A stretch of 64,000 bases of DNA from an uncultured Armatimonadetes bacterium. Its GTDB lineage: Bacteria > Armatimonadota > UBA5829 > DTJY01. A model generated the notes under the pieces. The model was not told where the DNA came from, searched no databases, and worked only from the letters and a program-made list of their open reading frames with translations. Both the position numbers and the translations under genes were made by a program. Shown here piece by piece: positions 6,454-13,534 of this stretch. Every line of letters begins with the position of its first letter. Position 1 is the stretch's first letter. The stretch spans positions 3,392,001 through 3,456,000 of the forward strand of contig OY970325.1 of NCBI GenBank assembly GCA_963717145.1, written 5' to 3'.

Positions 6454-7620
6454 CTACCCCTTGATCCCCGACATCACGATGCCCTTCACGAAGTACTTCT
6501 GCGCCGAGAAGAAGATGATCAGCACCGGCATCAGTACCGCGATCGACGCGGCCATCATCAGGTGGTACTCCGTGCCGTGAAGACTCTTGAACGACGCGAG
6601 CCCGAGGGCCAGGGTCTTGTTCTCCATCGACTGTATGTAGATCAGCGGGCCCATGAAGTCGTTCCAATGGGCCATGAAGCTGAACACCGCCACCGTGGCC
6701 AGCGCCGGCTTCGAGAGCGGTATGCACACGTTCCAGTATATACCGAGCGGGCCGCATCCGTCTATCTTGGCCGCATCCTCGAGTTCCTTGGGCAGCGTCA
6801 TGAAGAACTGCCTGAGCAGGAAGATGAAGAACGCGCCGCCTCCGAAGAACGCCGGGACGATCAGCGGCTTGAGCGTATCGATCCATTGCAGGTGAGTATA
6901 GAGGATGAAGGTCGGGATCTGAGTGACCTGCGCGGGGAGCATCATCGTCGAGAGCACGAGGATGAAGAGCGCGTCCCGGCCCGGGAACCGCATCCTGGAG
7001 AAGCCGAATGCGACCAGCGAGGCGCTGAGCACCTGCCCGATGATGCACGCGAGCGTGATGATGAGCGTGTTCTTGAGGAACAGGTGGAACGGCAGCACGG
7101 TCAGCGCGTCGGCGTAGTTCTTCCAGACCGGAGCGAATCTGACGACCTCAATCAGTCTATCGTCTGCATATGCCCGTGATTCGCCTACCAACCTGCTATC
7201 TACTAATCGCCAGGTCTTCCTGCCCTCAACGACCTGCCGCACCACTCTTCCGCCGACTACACGACGCACCGTCTTGTGGCCGTCTGGAGAAATCCCGACT
7301 GCTGCTACGCGTACATCACCCCGCGCCGAGCGGAGCAGAATATGCCAGAGAATCTGATATGATCTGCTATGATTGCAGATTCGGTAAAGAGGGTGTGCGC
7401 TGCCGTTCACCTCGGCAACTACCTGGCTTGATGGGATATACGAGCGATCCTTCACTGTGATCTTCGACTTATCAGTGAGCGAGGTCGACAGCATGAAAAG
7501 GAAGGGTACGAGGAAGACGATCGACAGCCCGACGAGCACCAGGTAACTGAGTCCCATCTTCAGGACTTCGTTACGCCGGGCCCGAGGGTCCCTAATCCTC
7601 CGACCGATCGTTGTTGCCAC
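6454..7620 (-). CDS. Carbohydrate ABC transporter permease (MalG type) with extended loop
   Basis: EAA motif LPKELEDAAKIDG, WNDFMGPLIY. Confidence 0.9.
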   Translation of the reverse strand: MATTIGRRIRDPRARRNEVLKMGLSYLVLVGLSIVFLVPFLFMLSTSLTDKSKITVKDRSYIPSSQVVAEVNGSAHPLYRICNHSRSYQILWHILLRSARGDVRVAAVGISPDGHKTVRRVVGGRVVRQVVEGRKTWRLVDSRLVGESRAYADDRLIEVVRFAPVWKNYADALTVLPFHLFLKNTLIITLACIIGQVLSASLVAFGFSRMRFPGRDALFILVLSTMMLPAQVTQIPTFILYTHLQWIDTLKPLIVPAFFGGGAFFIFLLRQFFMTLPKELEDAAKIDGCGPLGIYWNVCIPLSKPALATVAVFSFMAHWNDFMGPLIYIQSMENKTLALGLASFKSLHGTEYHLMMAASIAVLMPVLIIFFSAQKYFVKGIVMSGIKG

Positions 7621-7639
7621 AAGTTACCTCTCAGCATAG

Positions 7640-7756
7640 GTAGGGAACGGGCGCTGTCCCGTTCCGTGGATGCATGTCCGCAGCAGAGCGGAACGCGACG
7701 GCGGGCGTTCCCTACATTCGTGTCTCCAACACCCAACACCCGACACCCAACACCCG
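7640..7756. repeat. GTAG...CTAC REP doublet plus 7-nt CCAACAC tandem repeats
   Basis: gtagggaacg...cgttccctac (7640-7715), same family as 30337-30412; ccaacac repeats at 7726-7756. Confidence 0.75.
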
Positions 7757-7757
7757 C

Positions 7758-8699
7758 TTACTGGTAATGAACCCACTTGGGCGCTAGCTTGAACTGGATA
7801 AGCGTCAGTGTCATGATGATGATGAACAACAGCCATGCCATCGCCGACGCGTAGCCCATCCGGAAATACATGAACGCGTTCTGGAATAGATACAGGACGT
7901 AGAACAGCGTCGCGTTCATCGGGCCGCCGCCGGTCATGATGAACGCCGCGCCGAATACCTGGAACGCGCCAATGATCGACATGATCAGGTTGAAAAAGAT
8001 CGTCGGGCTGAGCATCGGGATAGTAACGTACCGGAACTTCTGGATGTTGCCCGCTCCATCGAGCAGGGCCGCCTCGTAGAGTTCCTCCGGAATGCCCTGG
8101 AGGCCCGCAAGATAGATGATCATCCCGCCGCCGACTCCCCAGAGCGCCATGATGATCAGCGCCGGCATCGCCCACGCCGGATCCCCGAGCCACTTCGGCG
8201 GATCCGCGACGAGCGGGATATGAGTGACGGCGAAACCATGTGCCCAGGTGATCCACGGGATCTCATGTCTGAGCGCCCGGTTCAGCAGCCCGAGTTCGGG
8301 GTTGAAGATCCAGGTCCAGAGCAGAAAGGTTGCAACACCCGCCGTGACCGACGGCACATAGAAGAGCGTTCGGAAGATGCGCATCCCGGTGAGCTTCTGG
8401 TTGAGCAGGAGGGCGGTCGAAAGCGCGCCGACCATCCCGAGCGGGATGGCAAACGCCGCGTAATACAACGTGTTCATCAGCGACTTGCGGATCAGCGGGT
8501 CTTCCATCATCTTGGCGTAGTTGCCGAATCCGACGAACTTGGCGGGCGTGAGGATGTCCCACTTGCAGAAACTGATGCACAGCGATGCGATGACCGGCCC
8601 GGCGGCGAAGACCAGGAACCCGATGATCCACGGCGATATGAACAGGAAGCCCTGTATCGCCTCCATCCGCTGCAACTTCGAAGTCTTCTCTTTCGTCAT
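7758..8699 (-). CDS. Carbohydrate ABC transporter permease (MalF type)
   Basis: YLAGLQGIPEELYEAALLDGA, MGYASAMAW. Confidence 0.9.
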   Translation of the reverse strand: MTKEKTSKLQRMEAIQGFLFISPWIIGFLVFAAGPVIASLCISFCKWDILTPAKFVGFGNYAKMMEDPLIRKSLMNTLYYAAFAIPLGMVGALSTALLLNQKLTGMRIFRTLFYVPSVTAGVATFLLWTWIFNPELGLLNRALRHEIPWITWAHGFAVTHIPLVADPPKWLGDPAWAMPALIIMALWGVGGGMIIYLAGLQGIPEELYEAALLDGAGNIQKFRYVTIPMLSPTIFFNLIMSIIGAFQVFGAAFIMTGGGPMNATLFYVLYLFQNAFMYFRMGYASAMAWLLFIIIMTLTLIQFKLAPKWVHYQ

Positions 8700-8713
8700 G
8701 ATCTCACTTCTCG

Positions 8714-8864
8714 GAGAACACGGAAACACGGAAGCAGACGGAAAGCACGGAAAGGTCCTTTATCAGGAAGCCAGGAATGTAGGAATCCATGAACCGTTCG
8801 AAGTTGGATGTTCGATGTTCGCTTCCTTCTGTGCTTCTGTCTCCCTCTGTGTTTCTGTGTTCTA
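8714..8864. repeat. GAACAC...GTGTTC 9-nt-periodic palindromic element with nested arms
   Basis: gagaacacggaaacacggaag ... ctctgtgtttctgtgttcta; inner caggaagccaggaa and gttggatgttcgatgttcg. Confidence 0.8.
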
Positions 8865-10160
8865 CCACACCTCTCCGCCGATTGCGGCGTTGACATCGGC
8901 GGCGAACTTCTTGCACGCCTCGTCGACCGTGCCGTAGCCGAGCCAGGCGCCCTCAAAGTTGGCCATCGCCTGGTTGAACTCTGTGTACTGCGGCGGGAAC
9001 GGCGCCTGACGCCCGTACTCGATCGCCTCGAGGAATACCCTGTCGCTCGGAGGCGAGATCGGCGATTTCAGCACCAGGTCGGACATGGCGACCTTCTTGT
9101 ACGCCGGGAATGCGTTCCCTGCCTTGACGTTCAGGAGCGCGCCCTCGTAGCCGGAGAGGAACTTCAGGAATTCCCACGCCTCCCGGGGATGCTTCGTCGT
9201 CTTGAGGATGCAGTTGCCGCCCCAGATGAATGTCGTCGCGCGGCCCGCGGGTCCCTTCGGCATGTGCGCCACGTCCCACGGGAACTCCAGGCCCTTGGAG
9301 AATATCTTGTAGGCATACCGGCTGTCCGCGATAATGCCAGCCCGCTGGGCCATGAACATGTCCTGGAAGCTCTGCCCGAGGCCCTGAGTGGCGGTCGGCG
9401 CGACGTGCTCCTTCATCGAGAGGTTGACGTAGAACTCCAGGCCGGCGATCGACTTCGGATCGTCCATCAGGCATTTCTTCGTATCCTTCGAGAGGATGTC
9501 GCCGCCGTTCGCCCAGACCCACGCGGGCCAGCGGTTATATGAGTTGATATTGACGAATCCGAACTGGTCGATCGTGCCATCGTGATCGGTATCTTTGGTC
9601 AGCTTCTTCGCAGCCCACAGGAACTTCTTCCAATCCCAGGTGTCGTCCGGGTAGGGAACACCGGCTTCGTCGAAGAGCTTCTTGTTGTAGACGAGCGCGA
9701 TCGTCGAGAAATCGCTCGGAAGGCCGAGGAGCTTGTCCTGGTAGCGCATGCCGTCGAGCACCTGATCGAAGTAGTCGTCGATGTCGAACGCCTTGTCTCC
9801 GGCGATGATCGGATTGAGGTCGACGAGCAGGTCTTTCGCTGCGTAGAACGGGAAGTTCTGCTGGGTGACGTGGAAGATGTCCGGCGAGATTCTGCCGGCG
9901 ACCAGGGTGAGCAGCTTGGCGTCGTAGCCGGTATCGCCCATGCTCGAATTAAGCCTGATCTTGATCTTGGGATGAGTGCGCTCGAACTCCGGGATGAGGT
10001 ACTTCTCGTACAGCTCGAGGAACTCCGGCGTGGCGTAGTTGTACCACTCGATGACGACTCGCCCGCCGTCATACTCCTGCCGAACCTTCGGCTGCATGAC
10101 CCACCGACCGAGTGCCACCAACACGACCAGGATTATCAGATAAGTTAGTGCTTTTCTCAT
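8862..10160 (-). CDS. Sugar ABC transporter substrate-binding protein
   Basis: N-terminal anchor, YNKKLFDEAGV, WDWKKF, EAWEFLKFL. Confidence 0.9.
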   Translation of the reverse strand: MRKALTYLIILVVLVALGRWVMQPKVRQEYDGGRVVIEWYNYATPEFLELYEKYLIPEFERTHPKIKIRLNSSMGDTGYDAKLLTLVAGRISPDIFHVTQQNFPFYAAKDLLVDLNPIIAGDKAFDIDDYFDQVLDGMRYQDKLLGLPSDFSTIALVYNKKLFDEAGVPYPDDTWDWKKFLWAAKKLTKDTDHDGTIDQFGFVNINSYNRWPAWVWANGGDILSKDTKKCLMDDPKSIAGLEFYVNLSMKEHVAPTATQGLGQSFQDMFMAQRAGIIADSRYAYKIFSKGLEFPWDVAHMPKGPAGRATTFIWGGNCILKTTKHPREAWEFLKFLSGYEGALLNVKAGNAFPAYKKVAMSDLVLKSPISPPSDRVFLEAIEYGRQAPFPPQYTEFNQAMANFEGAWLGYGTVDEACKKFAADVNAAIGGEVW

Positions 10161-10171
10161 GCTTACTCAGT

Positions 10172-10313
10172 GAGAACACAGATTACACAGATTGCGGAGG
10201 ATCACACAGAATGGAGAAAAGGGGGATCGGGAGATCCGGATCCCCCACTCACACAATCCCGTTCAGCATTCCATCTGTGCTATCTGTGTTTCATCTGTTC
10301 CATCTGTGTTCTA
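10172..10313. repeat. GAACAC...GTGTTC palindromic element
   Basis: gagaacacagattacacagatt ... atctgtgctatctgtgtttcatctgttccatctgtgttcta. Confidence 0.85.
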
Positions 10314-11108
10314 ATGTATCCCAAATATGCGTGCTGCGTTGAGGCCGAAGACCTTGCGCTTGTCGTCGTCGCTGATCTTCGCGAAGGCGACTCGCCCGAC
10401 CTGCGGACGGATGTCGATGAACGGCAGGTCGGTCCCGAATAGCACCCTTTCCGCGCCGAGACGGTTGACCATCCGCTCGAGTGTTCCATAGACGATGACG
10501 GAGCCGGTGATCTCGCAGTACAGGTTCGGGAACTTCAGACATGCCTCGATACACTGATCTGCGCCCTCCGAGCCGAAGCCCGAGTGCCCGAGCAGGATCG
10601 AGACATTCGGGTACATATCCGCCAGTTTCTCGAACGTCTTGATCGGGTTCCGTCCGCCGACGCCGGAATGCGAGAGGAGCGGGAGCTTCCGCTCGTTCGT
10701 CCACTCCCAGACGGCGCGGTACTTGTCATCGTCCACATTGGTCTGATGCAGGTCCGGATGGAGCTTGACGCCGACCATACCCGCCCCGACACAACGCTCC
10801 AGTTCGGCGATCAACTCCGACTCGGGGTAGTTCGGATTGACGGTCGCGTAACCGTAGATCCGACCCGGGAAGTCGGTCATCGCCTGCAGGACTTCGTCGT
10901 TGCCGAATCGGAAATCGGGTGCGATGGCGGCGTGGTGCGCGGCGACACATGCCCTCACTCCCAGGCGGTCCATCCATCGGACCATGTCGGCACCACTCGG
11001 CGCCGGGACGTTGAAGTTGGAGTAGTACCCCATGTGGCAGTGGGCATCTATCACCAGCTCATCGGTCAGGGGAATCCCCTGCAAAACCTTTTGTTGTAGC
11101 TCAGACAT
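10311..11108 (-). CDS. Amidohydrolase (Amidohydro_2 type)
   Basis: IDAHCH, GVKLHP, LLGHSG, VLFGTDLP. Confidence 0.9.
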   Translation of the reverse strand: MSELQQKVLQGIPLTDELVIDAHCHMGYYSNFNVPAPSGADMVRWMDRLGVRACVAAHHAAIAPDFRFGNDEVLQAMTDFPGRIYGYATVNPNYPESELIAELERCVGAGMVGVKLHPDLHQTNVDDDKYRAVWEWTNERKLPLLSHSGVGGRNPIKTFEKLADMYPNVSILLGHSGFGSEGADQCIEACLKFPNLYCEITGSVIVYGTLERMVNRLGAERVLFGTDLPFIDIRPQVGRVAFAKISDDDKRKVFGLNAARIFGIH

Positions 11109-11122
11109 ATTGCTCTAACCCT

Positions 11123-11260
11123 TAGAACACAGATGGCACGGATGGGAAGGGATGATGGGGATGGGGAATAGGGAATGGTTTATGGTTGGCACACTGAACC
11201 ACTAACAATTCCCCATCCCATCTGTTCCATCCTCTGCCATCTGTGTTATCTGTGTTCTCA
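11123..11260. repeat. GAACAC...GTGTTC palindromic element with nested GGGGAT/GGGAAT repeats
   Basis: tagaacacagatggcacggatgg ... ccatctgtgttatctgtgttctca. Confidence 0.85.
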
Positions 11261-12007
11261 TCCTTCCCACCTCAGCAGTGAGCGCAGGGTGTCGCCGGCG
11301 ATGAGGCGCTTGTCGGCATCGCTGATGTCGGCGTAGGTGATCTGCGCGATCGACGGACCGGCCTCGGTGACCGGAAGCCCCGATCCGAAGAGCAGCCGCC
11401 CTGCCCCGAACCGCCCGCAGACCTCCTCGATCCCGGACGGAACCGCATACGTCGCCACGTCAATCCGCAGGTTCTCGTACTTCTCCATCAGCGGGTACAT
11501 CATCCGGTCGCCTCGGTATGAGGGCTTGAGCAGACAGAGGTTGAGCTTCGGATGCGCCATTAGGAGGTCCGCCACGATATCCCAGTTCGTCTGGTCCATA
11601 TCGAGAAAGAGCGGGATCCGGTGTCCCTCCAGCATGTCGAGCAGATCGCCCGCGCACCAATCCGAGAGCCGCCATGAATGCGCGACAGGGAACGCGCGAA
11701 CAGCCCGGACGCCCGCCTGCTTCATCTGCGCGAGCAGATCGTCAGGTCCGGGCATCTCATCGGTATGATGCGGCATGACGACCCAGCAGGCATGCATGGC
11801 ATCTCGCCCTCTGGTCTCATCGAGGAGCATCTGGTTCCCGACCTTGGGCGCGTATTCCTTCGCCATCGAGTGCATCACGAGCGCCTCGGAGATGCCGACG
11901 CGCGCCATCTCGTCCGCGAGCGCATCCGCGGTCGTGAACGCCTCCGGGTGCTTGACCCCGTATCGCCCGATCTGGGCATTGCAGTCGAAGAAGCTCGGTT
12001 CACTCAT
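11258..12007 (-). CDS. Amidohydrolase-like protein with degenerate metal ligands
   Basis: FFDCNAQIG and LLFGSGLP in place of DxHxH and FGTD. Confidence 0.75.
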   Translation of the reverse strand: MSEPSFFDCNAQIGRYGVKHPEAFTTADALADEMARVGISEALVMHSMAKEYAPKVGNQMLLDETRGRDAMHACWVVMPHHTDEMPGPDDLLAQMKQAGVRAVRAFPVAHSWRLSDWCAGDLLDMLEGHRIPLFLDMDQTNWDIVADLLMAHPKLNLCLLKPSYRGDRMMYPLMEKYENLRIDVATYAVPSGIEEVCGRFGAGRLLFGSGLPVTEAGPSIAQITYADISDADKRLIAGDTLRSLLRWEG

Positions 12008-12018
12008 ATTCAAACCTT

Positions 12019-12184
12019 GGAACACAGATGACGCAGATTGGAGAAGATGACACGGAAAGCGCTTCCTATCAGGAAACCAGGAAACAAGGAATCAAGAAGA
12101 GTGTTCTTCCTTCCTGCTTTGCTGGCTTCCTCATAGAATTCCATCTGTTCCATCCGCTTCTCCATCTGTGTGATCTGTGTTCTA
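12019..12184. repeat. GAACAC...GTGTTC element containing a nested CAGGAA/TTCCTG element (12066-12136)
   Basis: ggaacacagatgacgcagatt [ctatcaggaaaccagg...ctggcttcctcatag] ccatctgtgtgatctgtgttcta. Confidence 0.85.
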
Positions 12185-13405
12185 CAACAGCTCCCCCACG
12201 TTTGCCTTGATCTTGACGATCGCGGCGGCGATGTCGTCCATGTCGGACTTCGGGCCGAGGAGTTGGTTCTGGCCGAGCCAGACCGCCTCGTTCGCGCAGG
12301 CGTTCTCCGCGACCGGGCAGCAGACCTGGGCGTAGTCCATCTTCCGACCCGCGAAACTGCATTCGATCGGGCAGCCGTCGAAGTAGAACATCTGCTCCTT
12401 GTAAAGCGGCACGTATCCGGCGGAGCATCCGATGCCCTCCGCGTTCAGCGCCTGGAGGAACTTCTCCCTCGGGACGTCCTGGAACGCGGCGGCAATGTAT
12501 CGGAATACGTACAGGTGATAGGCGTGCGTCGTCACCCTGGGATCTCGCTTGAGCGGGTTGATGCCCTCGATCCCGGAGAGCAGGCTGTCGAGGTAGAGCG
12601 CATTCTCCTCGCGGGTCTTCATCTGCCCTTCGAGCCGCTTCATCTGGGCAAGCAGGATCGCGCCCTGGAACTCGGTCATGCGCAGGTTGCTCCCGAGGAC
12701 GTGGTGCTCGTACCATCTGCCTTCGGGGACTCGCCCGCAGTTGTGGATCGACCATGCCGCCGAGTAGACCTTCGGGTCGTTCGTGACTACGATGCCGCCC
12801 TCGCCCGAGTTCAGGTTCTTGCTCGACTGGAAGCTGAACGTGCCCGCGTCGCCGAGCGCGCCGATCCGCTTGCCGTTCCATGCAGCCCCATGCGCCTGTG
12901 CGGCGTCCTCGACGACTTTCAGGCCGTGCTTCTTCGCGACCGCCAGGATGCCGTCCATGTCCGCCGGACCGCCGCCGATGTGAACCGCGAGGATCGCCTT
13001 CGTTTTCGGAGTGATCGCGGCTTCGATCTTGGCGGGATCGAGGTTGTATGTGTCATCGTCGATGTCGACGAAGACGGGGATCGCGTTGACCATCAGCACG
13101 GCGCTGGCGGAGGCGATGAACGTGTATGGCGGGACGATTACCTCGTCGCCCGCCCTGACGCCGACCGCCCGGAGAGCGACTTCGAGCGCCGAGGTGCCGT
13201 TCGTCACGCAGACGCCGTACTCAGCGTCCTGGAATGCGGCGAACTTCTTCTCGAACTCGTCGATCTTCCCGCCCGTGAGGCAGCCCCAGTGTCCCGATCG
13301 GACGACCTCCTCCAGTGCCTTGACCTCTGTGTCATCGAAAACCGGCCAACCCGGGAATGGTTTCGTGCGCGTCTTCTCTCCGCCGTTCATCGCCAGTTGC
13401 GCCAT
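12182..13405 (-). CDS. DegT/DnrJ/EryC1/StrS PLP aminotransferase
   Basis: NGTSAL, EDAAQAHGA, FSFQSSKNLNSGEGG; RBS aaggag. Confidence 0.92.
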   Translation of the reverse strand: MAQLAMNGGEKTRTKPFPGWPVFDDTEVKALEEVVRSGHWGCLTGGKIDEFEKKFAAFQDAEYGVCVTNGTSALEVALRAVGVRAGDEVIVPPYTFIASASAVLMVNAIPVFVDIDDDTYNLDPAKIEAAITPKTKAILAVHIGGGPADMDGILAVAKKHGLKVVEDAAQAHGAAWNGKRIGALGDAGTFSFQSSKNLNSGEGGIVVTNDPKVYSAAWSIHNCGRVPEGRWYEHHVLGSNLRMTEFQGAILLAQMKRLEGQMKTREENALYLDSLLSGIEGINPLKRDPRVTTHAYHLYVFRYIAAAFQDVPREKFLQALNAEGIGCSAGYVPLYKEQMFYFDGCPIECSFAGRKMDYAQVCCPVAENACANEAVWLGQNQLLGPKSDMDDIAAAIVKIKANVGELL

Positions 13406-13534
13406 CGCAATCGCTCCTTGAGTCAAGATATCGGCCACCAAGTCAGGCGGCTTGGTATATGTTCAACACTCGCGCGGCACTTCCTCCGGGGGATTGCGGA
13501 ACCACGGAGGCACGGAGGACACGGAGAAGAACAT

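Follow-up and report, generated by a model that had tools for sequence, protein, structure and literature searches.

Hairpin elements in consecutive operon junctions of an Armatimonadota genome, probable gene-less members of a family of hairpin-armed cassettes

What are the long hairpins that fill four consecutive gene junctions of one operon, each beginning at a stop codon, in a stretch of 64,000 nucleotides (nt) from an uncultured Armatimonadetes bacterium (assembly GCA_963717145.1, contig OY970325.1, positions 3,392,001 to 3,456,000), and how may they have come there? The whole stretch is called the window, and positions refer to it unless they are given for the source genome, named G000. 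An earlier note, made from the letters alone, had described nested GAACAC...GTGTTC elements fused to stop codons, interpreted as a site-specific hairpin element, comparable to integron attC sites, which targets stop codons and then acts as a landing pad for further elements. As a whole, this interpretation is partly supported. The four elements are probably gene-less, partly nested members, similar to MITEs (miniature transposable elements bounded by inverted repeats), of a family of hairpin-armed cassettes lying in tight operon junctions.

The palindromes were confirmed at all four junctions by sequence reading and an inverted-repeat search. They are imperfect hairpins of 133-163 nt, with ends GAACAC...GTGTTC and arms 74-89% complementary. 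In the following, the outer GAACAC...GTGTTC arms are called A arms and the CAGGAA/TTCCTG arms layer B, while SBP, amh1 and amh2 indicate the gene for the solute-binding protein and the two amidohydrolase genes.

8716..8862, minus strand: element 1, SBP>permease junction; outer GAA-type arms GAACACGGAAACACGGAAGCAGACGGAAAGCACGG ... CTGTGTTTCTGTGTTC
10174..10311, minus strand: element 2, amh1>SBP junction; GAT-type arms of 4 units, with a central GGGGGATCGGGAGATCCGGATCCCCC hairpin
11125..11257, minus strand: element 3, amh2>amh1 junction; GAT-type arms, with inner layers GGGGAT/GGGAAT and GGTTTATGGTTGG
12020..12182, minus strand: element 4, DegT>amh2 junction; GAT-type arms around a complete CAGGAA/TTCCTG hairpin (about 12066-12136)

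The inner motifs listed in the earlier note are all present: besides the CAGGAA/TTCCTG pair of element 4, element 1 contains a single half of the CAGGAA layer together with a GATGTTCGATGTTCG (CGAACAT) arm, and GGGGAT centres were found in the window elements by sequence reading. None of the four elements contains an open reading frame (ORF). Folded as RNA, elements 1, 2 and 3 have minimum free energies of -58.2, -59.5 and -64.7 kcal/mol (z -6.2, -5.4 and -7.4), and none of 200 shuffles folds as well as these three. An Rfam scan of positions 8000-13000 at E <= 1 returned only three chance matches to microRNA models, far under the gathering scores.

The ends are fused to the neighboring genes, as had been claimed. 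On the coding strand, stop codon and element overlap by one base, the G of TAG, at 8862-8864, 10311-10313 and 12182-12184 (TA/GAACAC, the slash marking the element border); element 3 is the exception, its GAACAC following directly a TGA stop at 11258-11260 (TGA/GAACAC). At the opposite end, GTGTTC lies 16, 13, 16 and 12 nt ahead of the next ATG, for elements 1 to 4 respectively.

8862..8864, minus strand: SBP stop codon TAG, with its G as the first base of element 1
8700..8715, minus strand: tail of 16 nt from the end of element 1 to the permease ATG, with a Shine-Dalgarno-like GAGAAGTGAG
10161..10173, minus strand: tail of element 2, 13 nt
11109..11124, minus strand: tail of element 3, 16 nt
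12008..12019, minus strand: tail of element 4, 12 nt

The possibility that the tail of element 1 is a diverged 3' end of the SBP gene was evaluated and rejected: 8 of 16 positions match by eye, and the comparison fails at the other junctions.

The elements belong to a dispersed family and are not a local oddity. Each outer arm is made up of about four tandem units of 9-10 nt, the purine-rich arm being always the 5' one, and two flavours were distinguished, GAACACAGAT GRCACAGAT GGCRGAGGAT GRAACAGAT GG and GAACACAGAA GCACGGAA GG..GGAA ACACAGAA. Many copies hold further mirrored inner layers, which include layer B (TATCAGGAAGCCAGGAA.../...TTCCTGGCTTCCTGATA), layers of the GGGAAT, GGGAG and GGTTGATGG types, and a GGGGATGGAGTTGGACTCCATCCCC type. 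Within the window, GAACACAGAT occurs 10 times with at most one mismatch, against 3.5 +/- 2.1 times in shuffled sequences, none of 100 shuffles reaching 10. In G000, a 19-nt arm pattern was found 64 times (31 + 33) and its backwards control never, while a search with hidden Markov models of the arms gave 101 matches, resolved into 41 automatic pairs, in which the four-unit arms are arranged plus-then-minus, and 16 single arms. Most of the latter have a degenerate partner on inspection, for a total of about 50-57 elements. RNA folding energies range from -32 to -153 kcal/mol across 38 of them.

The arms, about 40 nt in length, constitute terminal inverted repeats with a common consensus, found at about 50 loci. 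Identity between arms of different loci goes up to 40 of 40 positions, with at least 36/40 in 41 cross-locus pairs, whereas the two arms of a single element agree at just 13-34 of 40 positions in register. Since arms resemble those of other loci more than their own partner, they appear to have been copied from shared templates, which argues against local mirroring.

Placement relative to genes was evaluated by using a crude codon-score gene caller (4216 genes), which misplaces some start codons. The association with stop codons, first noticed at the four junctions, holds throughout the genome far beyond chance: 34 of 47 stop-side arms either overlap a stop codon or lie within 7 nt of it, and in 19 of 47 the G of TAG is common to both. 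On the start side, 27 of 50 arms are located 10-18 nt from the called start, several outliers being miscalled starts; GTGTTC is followed by 2-5 nt, a GGAG/AAGG-type ribosome-binding site, 6-9 nt and the ATG. Paired elements mostly lie between co-directional genes (34/39), the other five between convergent or divergent ones. Once the length of the element is subtracted, the gap is 25 nt or less in 23 of the 34 co-directional junctions, compared with 28% of all co-directional junctions.

Presence and absence of the elements were then evaluated at orthologous junctions of related genomes, starting from the operon which hosts the window elements.

7758..13441, minus strand: host operon (sugar transport), with permease, SBP, two Amidohydro_2 genes and DegT/DnrJ aminotransferase
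7758..8699, minus strand: ABC permease (BPD_transp_1)
8862..10160, minus strand: solute-binding protein (SBP_bac_1)
10311..11108, minus strand: amidohydrolase-1 (Amidohydro_2)
11258..12007, minus strand: amidohydrolase-2 (Amidohydro_2)
12182..13441, minus strand: DegT/DnrJ aminotransferase

Five further genera of the family (G001, G005, G006, G007, G009) have the operon in synteny, and its order is kept in the metagenome contigs L147 and L150; in L148 an interruption of about 1.1 kb separates the amidohydrolase genes. The nearest relative is L147, where amh1 is 92% and DegT 97% identical. Its SBP>permease junction reads gtgtggTGAtATG in place of the 147-nt hairpin and 16-nt tail of G000. At DegT>amh2, the outer arms are as in G000, without the 76-nt inner CAGGAA hairpin; at amh2>amh1, a mini hairpin of 44 nt is enclosed by the same flanks; at amh1>SBP, a nearly identical element of 150 nt is found. 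The amh2>amh1 junction is empty in L149, L150 and G006, and more distant relatives have empty junctions such as TAGcatATG, TGAgtggaATG, TAG followed by 11 nt and ATG, or a TGA/ATG overlap. Empty sites were also found in related genera for eight further G000 junctions, with gaps of -13, -4, 1, 4, 13 and 18 nt; at one of them, G000 reads TCG TAG/gaacac...gtgttc/taaaggcttt ATG, and the two genes overlap as ATGA in G006 and G007. Empty sites, whose absence would have spoken against an inserted element according to the earlier note, thus exist in relatives. The same junctions often hold, in other genera, hairpins built of other units (GGAGTNNT, GTCAGAC, GGGNGTG, GATGAGTGA). The C-termini of the upstream proteins are conserved to within one residue across relatives, so that the elements sit exactly at the stop codon and do not truncate the upstream gene.

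Some junctions depart from this scheme. One-armed arrays, lacking the second arm, are present at amidohydrolase>SBP in L146/L150, of the G007 lineage (TAGaacacagattacacagaaaaccacagatagcacagATG), and a two-unit array is present in L148. In L145 (G009), hairpins built of GATGAGTGA units are found at amh2>amh1 and SBP>permease; at one junction the upstream gene ends in codons formed by the 5' arm (...atgacgagtgacaagTGA), and its C-terminus is longer than in the orthologues.

Two soil DNA sequencing runs, both from one study, contain 6-7% of the sampled sequence words; the runs listed as containing such words included none of RNA. The contigs obtained from them are fragmentary and derive from a relative, being less than 95% alike in 67 of 74 cases (X1) and 66 of 73 (X2). 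One contig of 321 nt covers 11022-11336, including element 3. No joint in these contigs cleanly removes a single element; the listed ones connect different repeat copies.

Some members of the family carry genes. A pair of A arms in G000 (4778375...4778891) encloses, at 4778441-4778782, the gene for a GxxExxY protein of 137 amino acids, which scores 125 bits against PF13366 and matches TIGR04256 with E = 9e-39. A second and a third GxxExxY gene of G000 lie inside layer B arms, without A arms, and inside CACGAATG arms. All four PF05635 genes of G000, coding for the protein of 23S rRNA intervening sequences (IVS), lie inside other tandem-unit arms, including those of the GGTTGATGG type, which is also an inner layer of element 3. 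The nesting proposed in the earlier note is therefore borne out in two ways: L147 has outer arms without the inner CAGGAA hairpin, and inner arm types elsewhere bound separate gene-carrying cassettes. At the DegT>amh2 junction, L150 carries a PF05635 cassette (E = 3.5e-13), and G009 carries another (E = 5e-40) at a junction which holds a composite element in G000.

PF13366 genes occur in 58 of 151 genomes of the phylum. Inverted arms bracket 24 of the 29 best GxxExxY loci outside G000, compared with 0 of 55 shifted control windows, and the units around these genes share the core of the window arms (ACCACAGAGGCACAGAGG, CACCGCAGAGACGCAGAGG, GAACACGG...CACGGATTTT, GAACGCAAATTACGCAAAT, AACAGGATAGTCAGGATGG). 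Gene-carrying cassettes are in line with same-strand flanking ORFs and their 3' ends lie 4-17 nt before the next ATG; several begin at a stop codon (aaaTAGAACGC, aaaTAGAACGCAAAT, aaaTAAACAGGAT, tttTAACACAGAGG). Among 27 GxxExxY sequences, E39 never varies, and conservation of D78, E88 and K90 is 90% or higher. The predicted structure has a local confidence score (pLDDT) of 91 and its best Foldseek fold matches are PD-(D/E)XK nucleases; a sequence search of the PDB gave nothing meaningful. Among the genes that the earlier note had suggested looking for between such arms, a small nuclease-like gene was thus found, while RAYT, HUH and tyrosine recombinase genes are not the enclosed gene. In the accessible parts of the literature, GxxExxY/PF13366 is listed as of function unknown in the table of a PD-(D/E)XK survey, and another paper mentions the family incidentally.

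A mechanism consistent with these observations may be outlined. A full cassette would consist of a long imperfect stem, in which each arm has about four tandem units of 8-10 nt, the core CAC(A/G)GA(T/A/G) marking the purine-rich 5' arm, to which the 3' arm is complementary, and of a loop carrying a small promoter-less gene, here that of the GxxExxY PD-(D/E)XK nuclease-like protein. Cassettes would be placed in line with host operons, in junctions originally few nucleotides wide, so that the 5' arm begins at or in the upstream stop codon and the 3' arm stops a few nucleotides before the next ribosome-binding site. Layering may arise when the apex of a hairpin already in place receives further cassettes, with arms of other types (CAGGAA, GGTTGATGG, GGGGAT and others), or alternatively when composites are copied as a unit; enclosed genes would then be lost, and nested arm pairs remain. 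The elements would be mobile, moved by the GxxExxY nuclease via the arms. Since the stem would fold the insert out of the path of the messenger RNA, the operon should still work and insertion could be nearly neutral, which may explain why the elements are tolerated.

Targeting of stop codons, as put forward in the earlier note, is not required by the data. The empty junctions are -13 to +18 nt wide, so narrow that any insert between such genes must touch the stop codon.

Several results weigh against the cassette mechanism as outlined. No target-site duplication was found at 39 elements, where an anchored direct repeat measures 0 nt in 32 cases and never exceeds 2 nt. Flanks are slightly more alike within loci than between them (4.54 and 4.14; permutation p = 0.012), which was not taken as duplication, and a flank palindrome was sought in the G000 elements and not found. 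The ribosome-binding tail of 13-16 nt is missing from the empty sites. The inner CAGGAA hairpins retrieved by one regular expression are all inside A-type arms (16/16), and the joint between the two layers appears by eye to be conserved, so that composites may be copied as wholes, without repeated nesting. At amh1>SBP, a first unit of AACRCRGAT type recurs in six lineages, with protein identity as low as about 72%; prolonged occupation or selection would account for this as readily as repeated targeting. Movement of a copy was not observed, and with the nearest relatives at about 90% protein identity, insertion is not distinguishable from precise loss. As to the enzyme, the Foldseek matches are weak and generic (E about 1e-3, TM <=0.52).

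A variant of the composite structure was observed at G000:C1:3322789-3323055, where one outer arm pair surrounds two tandem CAGGAA hairpins, each with a partial right arm; it resembles an internal duplication within one element.

The stems could instead be RNA elements of the host, spread by selection, which process or stabilize polycistronic messengers, as RNase III sites or as barriers to 3'-exonucleases of the kind known from REP/BIME (repetitive extragenic palindromic sequence/bacterial interspersed mosaic element) in malEFG, or which couple adjacent cistrons and fix how strongly each is expressed relative to the other. The very high stability already described, with z between -5 and -7, the strict placement between stop codon and ribosome-binding site and the A-type first unit kept at amh1>SBP across six lineages would all agree with such a role, and RNase III cuts the 23S rRNA intervening sequences, of similar design, according to the available part of PMC4990558. 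We consider this explanation unlikely. Neither strand is favored: of 27 co-directional elements, 16 fold better as the coding strand and 11 fold worse (Wilcoxon p = 0.92); in many relatives the orthologous junctions are empty or occupied by unrelated unit types; 5 of 39 elements are not between co-directional genes at all; and the same arms enclose selfish-looking genes. Finally, the outer stems are not followed by a U-tract, and a scan for intrinsic terminators revealed no enrichment (5 vs 2.5 +/- 1.7).

Formation in place was also considered, by slippage that expands units beside stop codons and fold-back synthesis that mirrors the array, the likeness between loci then being due to mutational bias or gene conversion. 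This would account for the lack of target-site duplication, for the one-armed arrays (G007/L150 and L148) and for the variation of unit number at a single site, from the 44-nt mini hairpin of L147 to the four-unit arms of G000. It is improbable, given that unlinked arms share a four-unit consensus, including the distinct third unit GGCRGAGGAT, with identity up to 40/40 and above that found within elements, that the same 19-nt end is found in many phyla, and that relatives differ by the presence or absence of whole elements. The model of the earlier note, in which a tyrosine recombinase or HUH enzyme recognizes a folded strand of attC-like or REP/RAYT-like sites (RAYT, REP-associated tyrosine transposase) and inserts it at stop codons, does agree with nested imperfect palindromes over stops at four junctions in a row, and attC sites are likewise imperfect palindromes directly after cassette ORFs, sometimes over the stop. 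They have core sites RYYYAAC ... GTTRRRY, which the present ends TAGAACAC/GTGTTCTA misfit: in (T)AGAACAC ... GTGTTCT(A), the disagreement is in the letters that precede AAC and in those that follow GTT. No integron integrase was found above cut-off, the best TIGR02249 match scoring 92 bits against a cut-off of 265, and IntI is absent from the genome, which has only generic tyrosine recombinases; the flanking genes form a fixed operon, syntenic in six other lineages, and are not exchangeable cassettes; the elements lack the GTAG head of REPs; and the enclosed gene codes for a PD-(D/E)XK protein. We regard this model as very improbable. One gene for a generic tyrosine recombinase, XerC/D-like by score, is located at G000:C1:2567851-2568681, one gene upstream of an A-type element at 2569250, with no sign of a connection between the two.

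Outside the lineage, a GAACACAGATNNCACAGAT pattern was searched in contigs representing one genome per species, and at least 121 loci were found, where about 70 are expected by chance by our own arithmetic; most matches are not due to chance, because further units continue after them. Among the matches listed, hosts belong to Bacteroidota, Ignavibacteriota, Chloroflexota, Gemmatimonadota, Verrucomicrobiota, Planctomycetota, Acidobacteriota and Thermoplasmatota, a strict GTGTTC-type partner closes 44 of about 125 arms, and many other arms have a degenerate partner. The letters between the unit cores track the GC content of the host. An ORF stop is found at -1 to +9 nt from 20 of the 124 arms listed, compared with 4.5% of control positions, an association weaker than in G000. 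In 2 of the 121 listed loci (L066, L125) a GxxExxY ORF directly follows the arm, as detected by a motif regular expression within flanks of 300-400 nt. Short GAACACAGATTCCACAGAT...ATCTGTGGAATCTGTGTTC hairpins are present in contigs L031, L055 and L090 (63-67% GC), which are from metagenome-assembled genomes (MAGs) of Thermoplasmatota; the arm type is thus not confined to bacteria.

Two further arrangements were noticed among these loci. In a Bacteroidia MAG contig with 34% GC (L019, about 401-730), three GAACACAGAT-type hairpins follow each other head to tail within 330 nt, the left arm of one of them containing an inserted, GC-rich CCGCCAGTGGGCGG hairpin. In L128, L113 and L099, the flanks lengthen the palindrome by locus-specific bases (tagagtgatg/.../catcactcta, cgacgg/.../cccgtcg and gaatt/.../aattc, respectively). 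Such flanks would agree with an insertion in the middle of a palindrome that was already there, a pattern not seen in G000.

A broader view may be put forward tentatively, in which hairpins similar to the short tandemly repeated repetitive (STRR) sequences, 23S rRNA intervening sequences and the present elements are one class of mobile cassettes, widespread and so far hardly described. The gene in the loop, without a promoter, would be that of either a GxxExxY PD-(D/E)XK nuclease or the four-helix-bundle IVS protein, and the arms would be arrays of protein-binding units. Insertion would leave no duplication and would take place either in the few nucleotides separating a stop codon from the following start, or at the apex of a hairpin already present; folded away by the stem, the cassette would stay outside the message and be harmless. 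The lineage with the GAACACAGAT flavour would possibly have crossed many bacterial phyla and entered the Thermoplasmatota archaea.

Elements with some of these properties are known. REP/BIME and MITE-type repeats, such as REPIN-RAYT, Correia and ERIC sequences, are dispersed intergenic palindromes, often near stop codons and co-transcribed with operons, and include gene-less derivatives of a gene-carrying parent, like the present family. The A arms differ from them in their tandem units, in having no target-site duplication and in having no GTAG head, although no search was aimed at RAYT genes; the candidate parent gene, in a copy with the same arms, is neither RAYT nor an insertion-sequence transposase but codes for a GxxExxY PD-(D/E)XK protein, which is not a known transposase. 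Moreover, G000 has separate REPs of the GTAG type, for example within 7558-7757. This gap of 200 nt between two permease genes contains GGGTGTT tandem units, followed by a REP-like double hairpin (GTAGGGAACGCC...GGAACGGG); the set of repeats is kept in L147, and a similar GTAGGGAACG hairpin is found at another junction of G001.

The closest likeness in layout is to G-rich heptamer repeats, GGGAATC in Xanthomonas and GGGGAYT in Nostoc, which are akin to the STRR sequences of cyanobacteria (Rehm et al. 2015, PMC4692102). According to the available part of that paper, arrays have mostly four units and form 70-75 convergent pairs per genome, preferentially between aligned ORFs; the purine/G-rich array is on the sense strand, at most 50 bp from the stop or overlapping it, the complementary array is just upstream of the next ORF, and the authors interpret them as simple repeats forming G-quadruplexes. 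The present elements share with these pairs, as described there, the approximately four tandem units, the convergent arrangement, the aligned ORFs and the purine-rich array at or over the stop, and the GGGAAT-type units of those repeats resemble inner layers of the present elements. The latter differ in having units of 9-10 nt with a CACAGAT core, not prone to form G-quadruplexes, and a defined GAACAC...GTGTTC terminus, as well as enclosed genes, several nested unit types and presence/absence between relatives, none of which is described in the part of PMC4692102 available.

The intervening sequences of 23S rRNA with an S23p/PF05635 ORF, found in Coxiella and Leptospira, have terminal inverted repeats (a 28-bp stem in Coxiella) and a small promoter-less loop ORF co-transcribed with the host gene; they are excised by RNase III and are viewed as selfish, their mobility being unknown, as reported in the accessible text of PMC4990558. 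The long stem is common to both, and PF05635 genes of G000 and its relatives lie in the same kind of tandem-unit hairpin; unlike IVS, which are in 23S rRNA helices (helix 25 or 45), the present elements are between protein genes, and their A-type arms enclose a GxxExxY (PF13366) gene and not PF05635. In Beggiatoaceae, Cyanobacteria and Bacteroidetes, direct repeats of the heptamer TAACTGA are, in the available part of PMC4679880, mostly single direct arrays just upstream of starts, with one indirect repeat reported. These repeats too, as described there, consist of short tandem units at starts or stops, occur in many phyla, vary in unit number between strains and have a suspected mobile origin; a hairpin architecture and an enclosed gene, typical of the present family, are not described in that part.

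A literature search, the scope of which did not include subscription journals and supplementary files, revealed no paper that ties such hairpins to GxxExxY cassettes, nesting or insertion in operon junctions, and a full-text search with the end sequence retrieved only primers. The class of repeats is itself already published; the CACAGAT-type flavour, the nesting, the presence/absence between relatives and the tie to GxxExxY/IVS-protein cassettes appear to be new.

The proposed reading would show how an insert of 130-250 nt can sit in translationally coupled gene pairs while leaving the operon unsplit; for genome annotation, this would affect stop and start calls, the sizes assigned to 'intergenic' regions and operon prediction. 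If the proposed relationship is true, the STRR and heptamer arrays, known for decades and still open as to origin and function, would gain a testable source in the GxxExxY/IVS-protein cassettes, and rRNA intervening sequences would be connected to elements of ordinary operons. GxxExxY (TIGR04256/PF13366), a large family of unknown function, would in that case obtain its first biological context.

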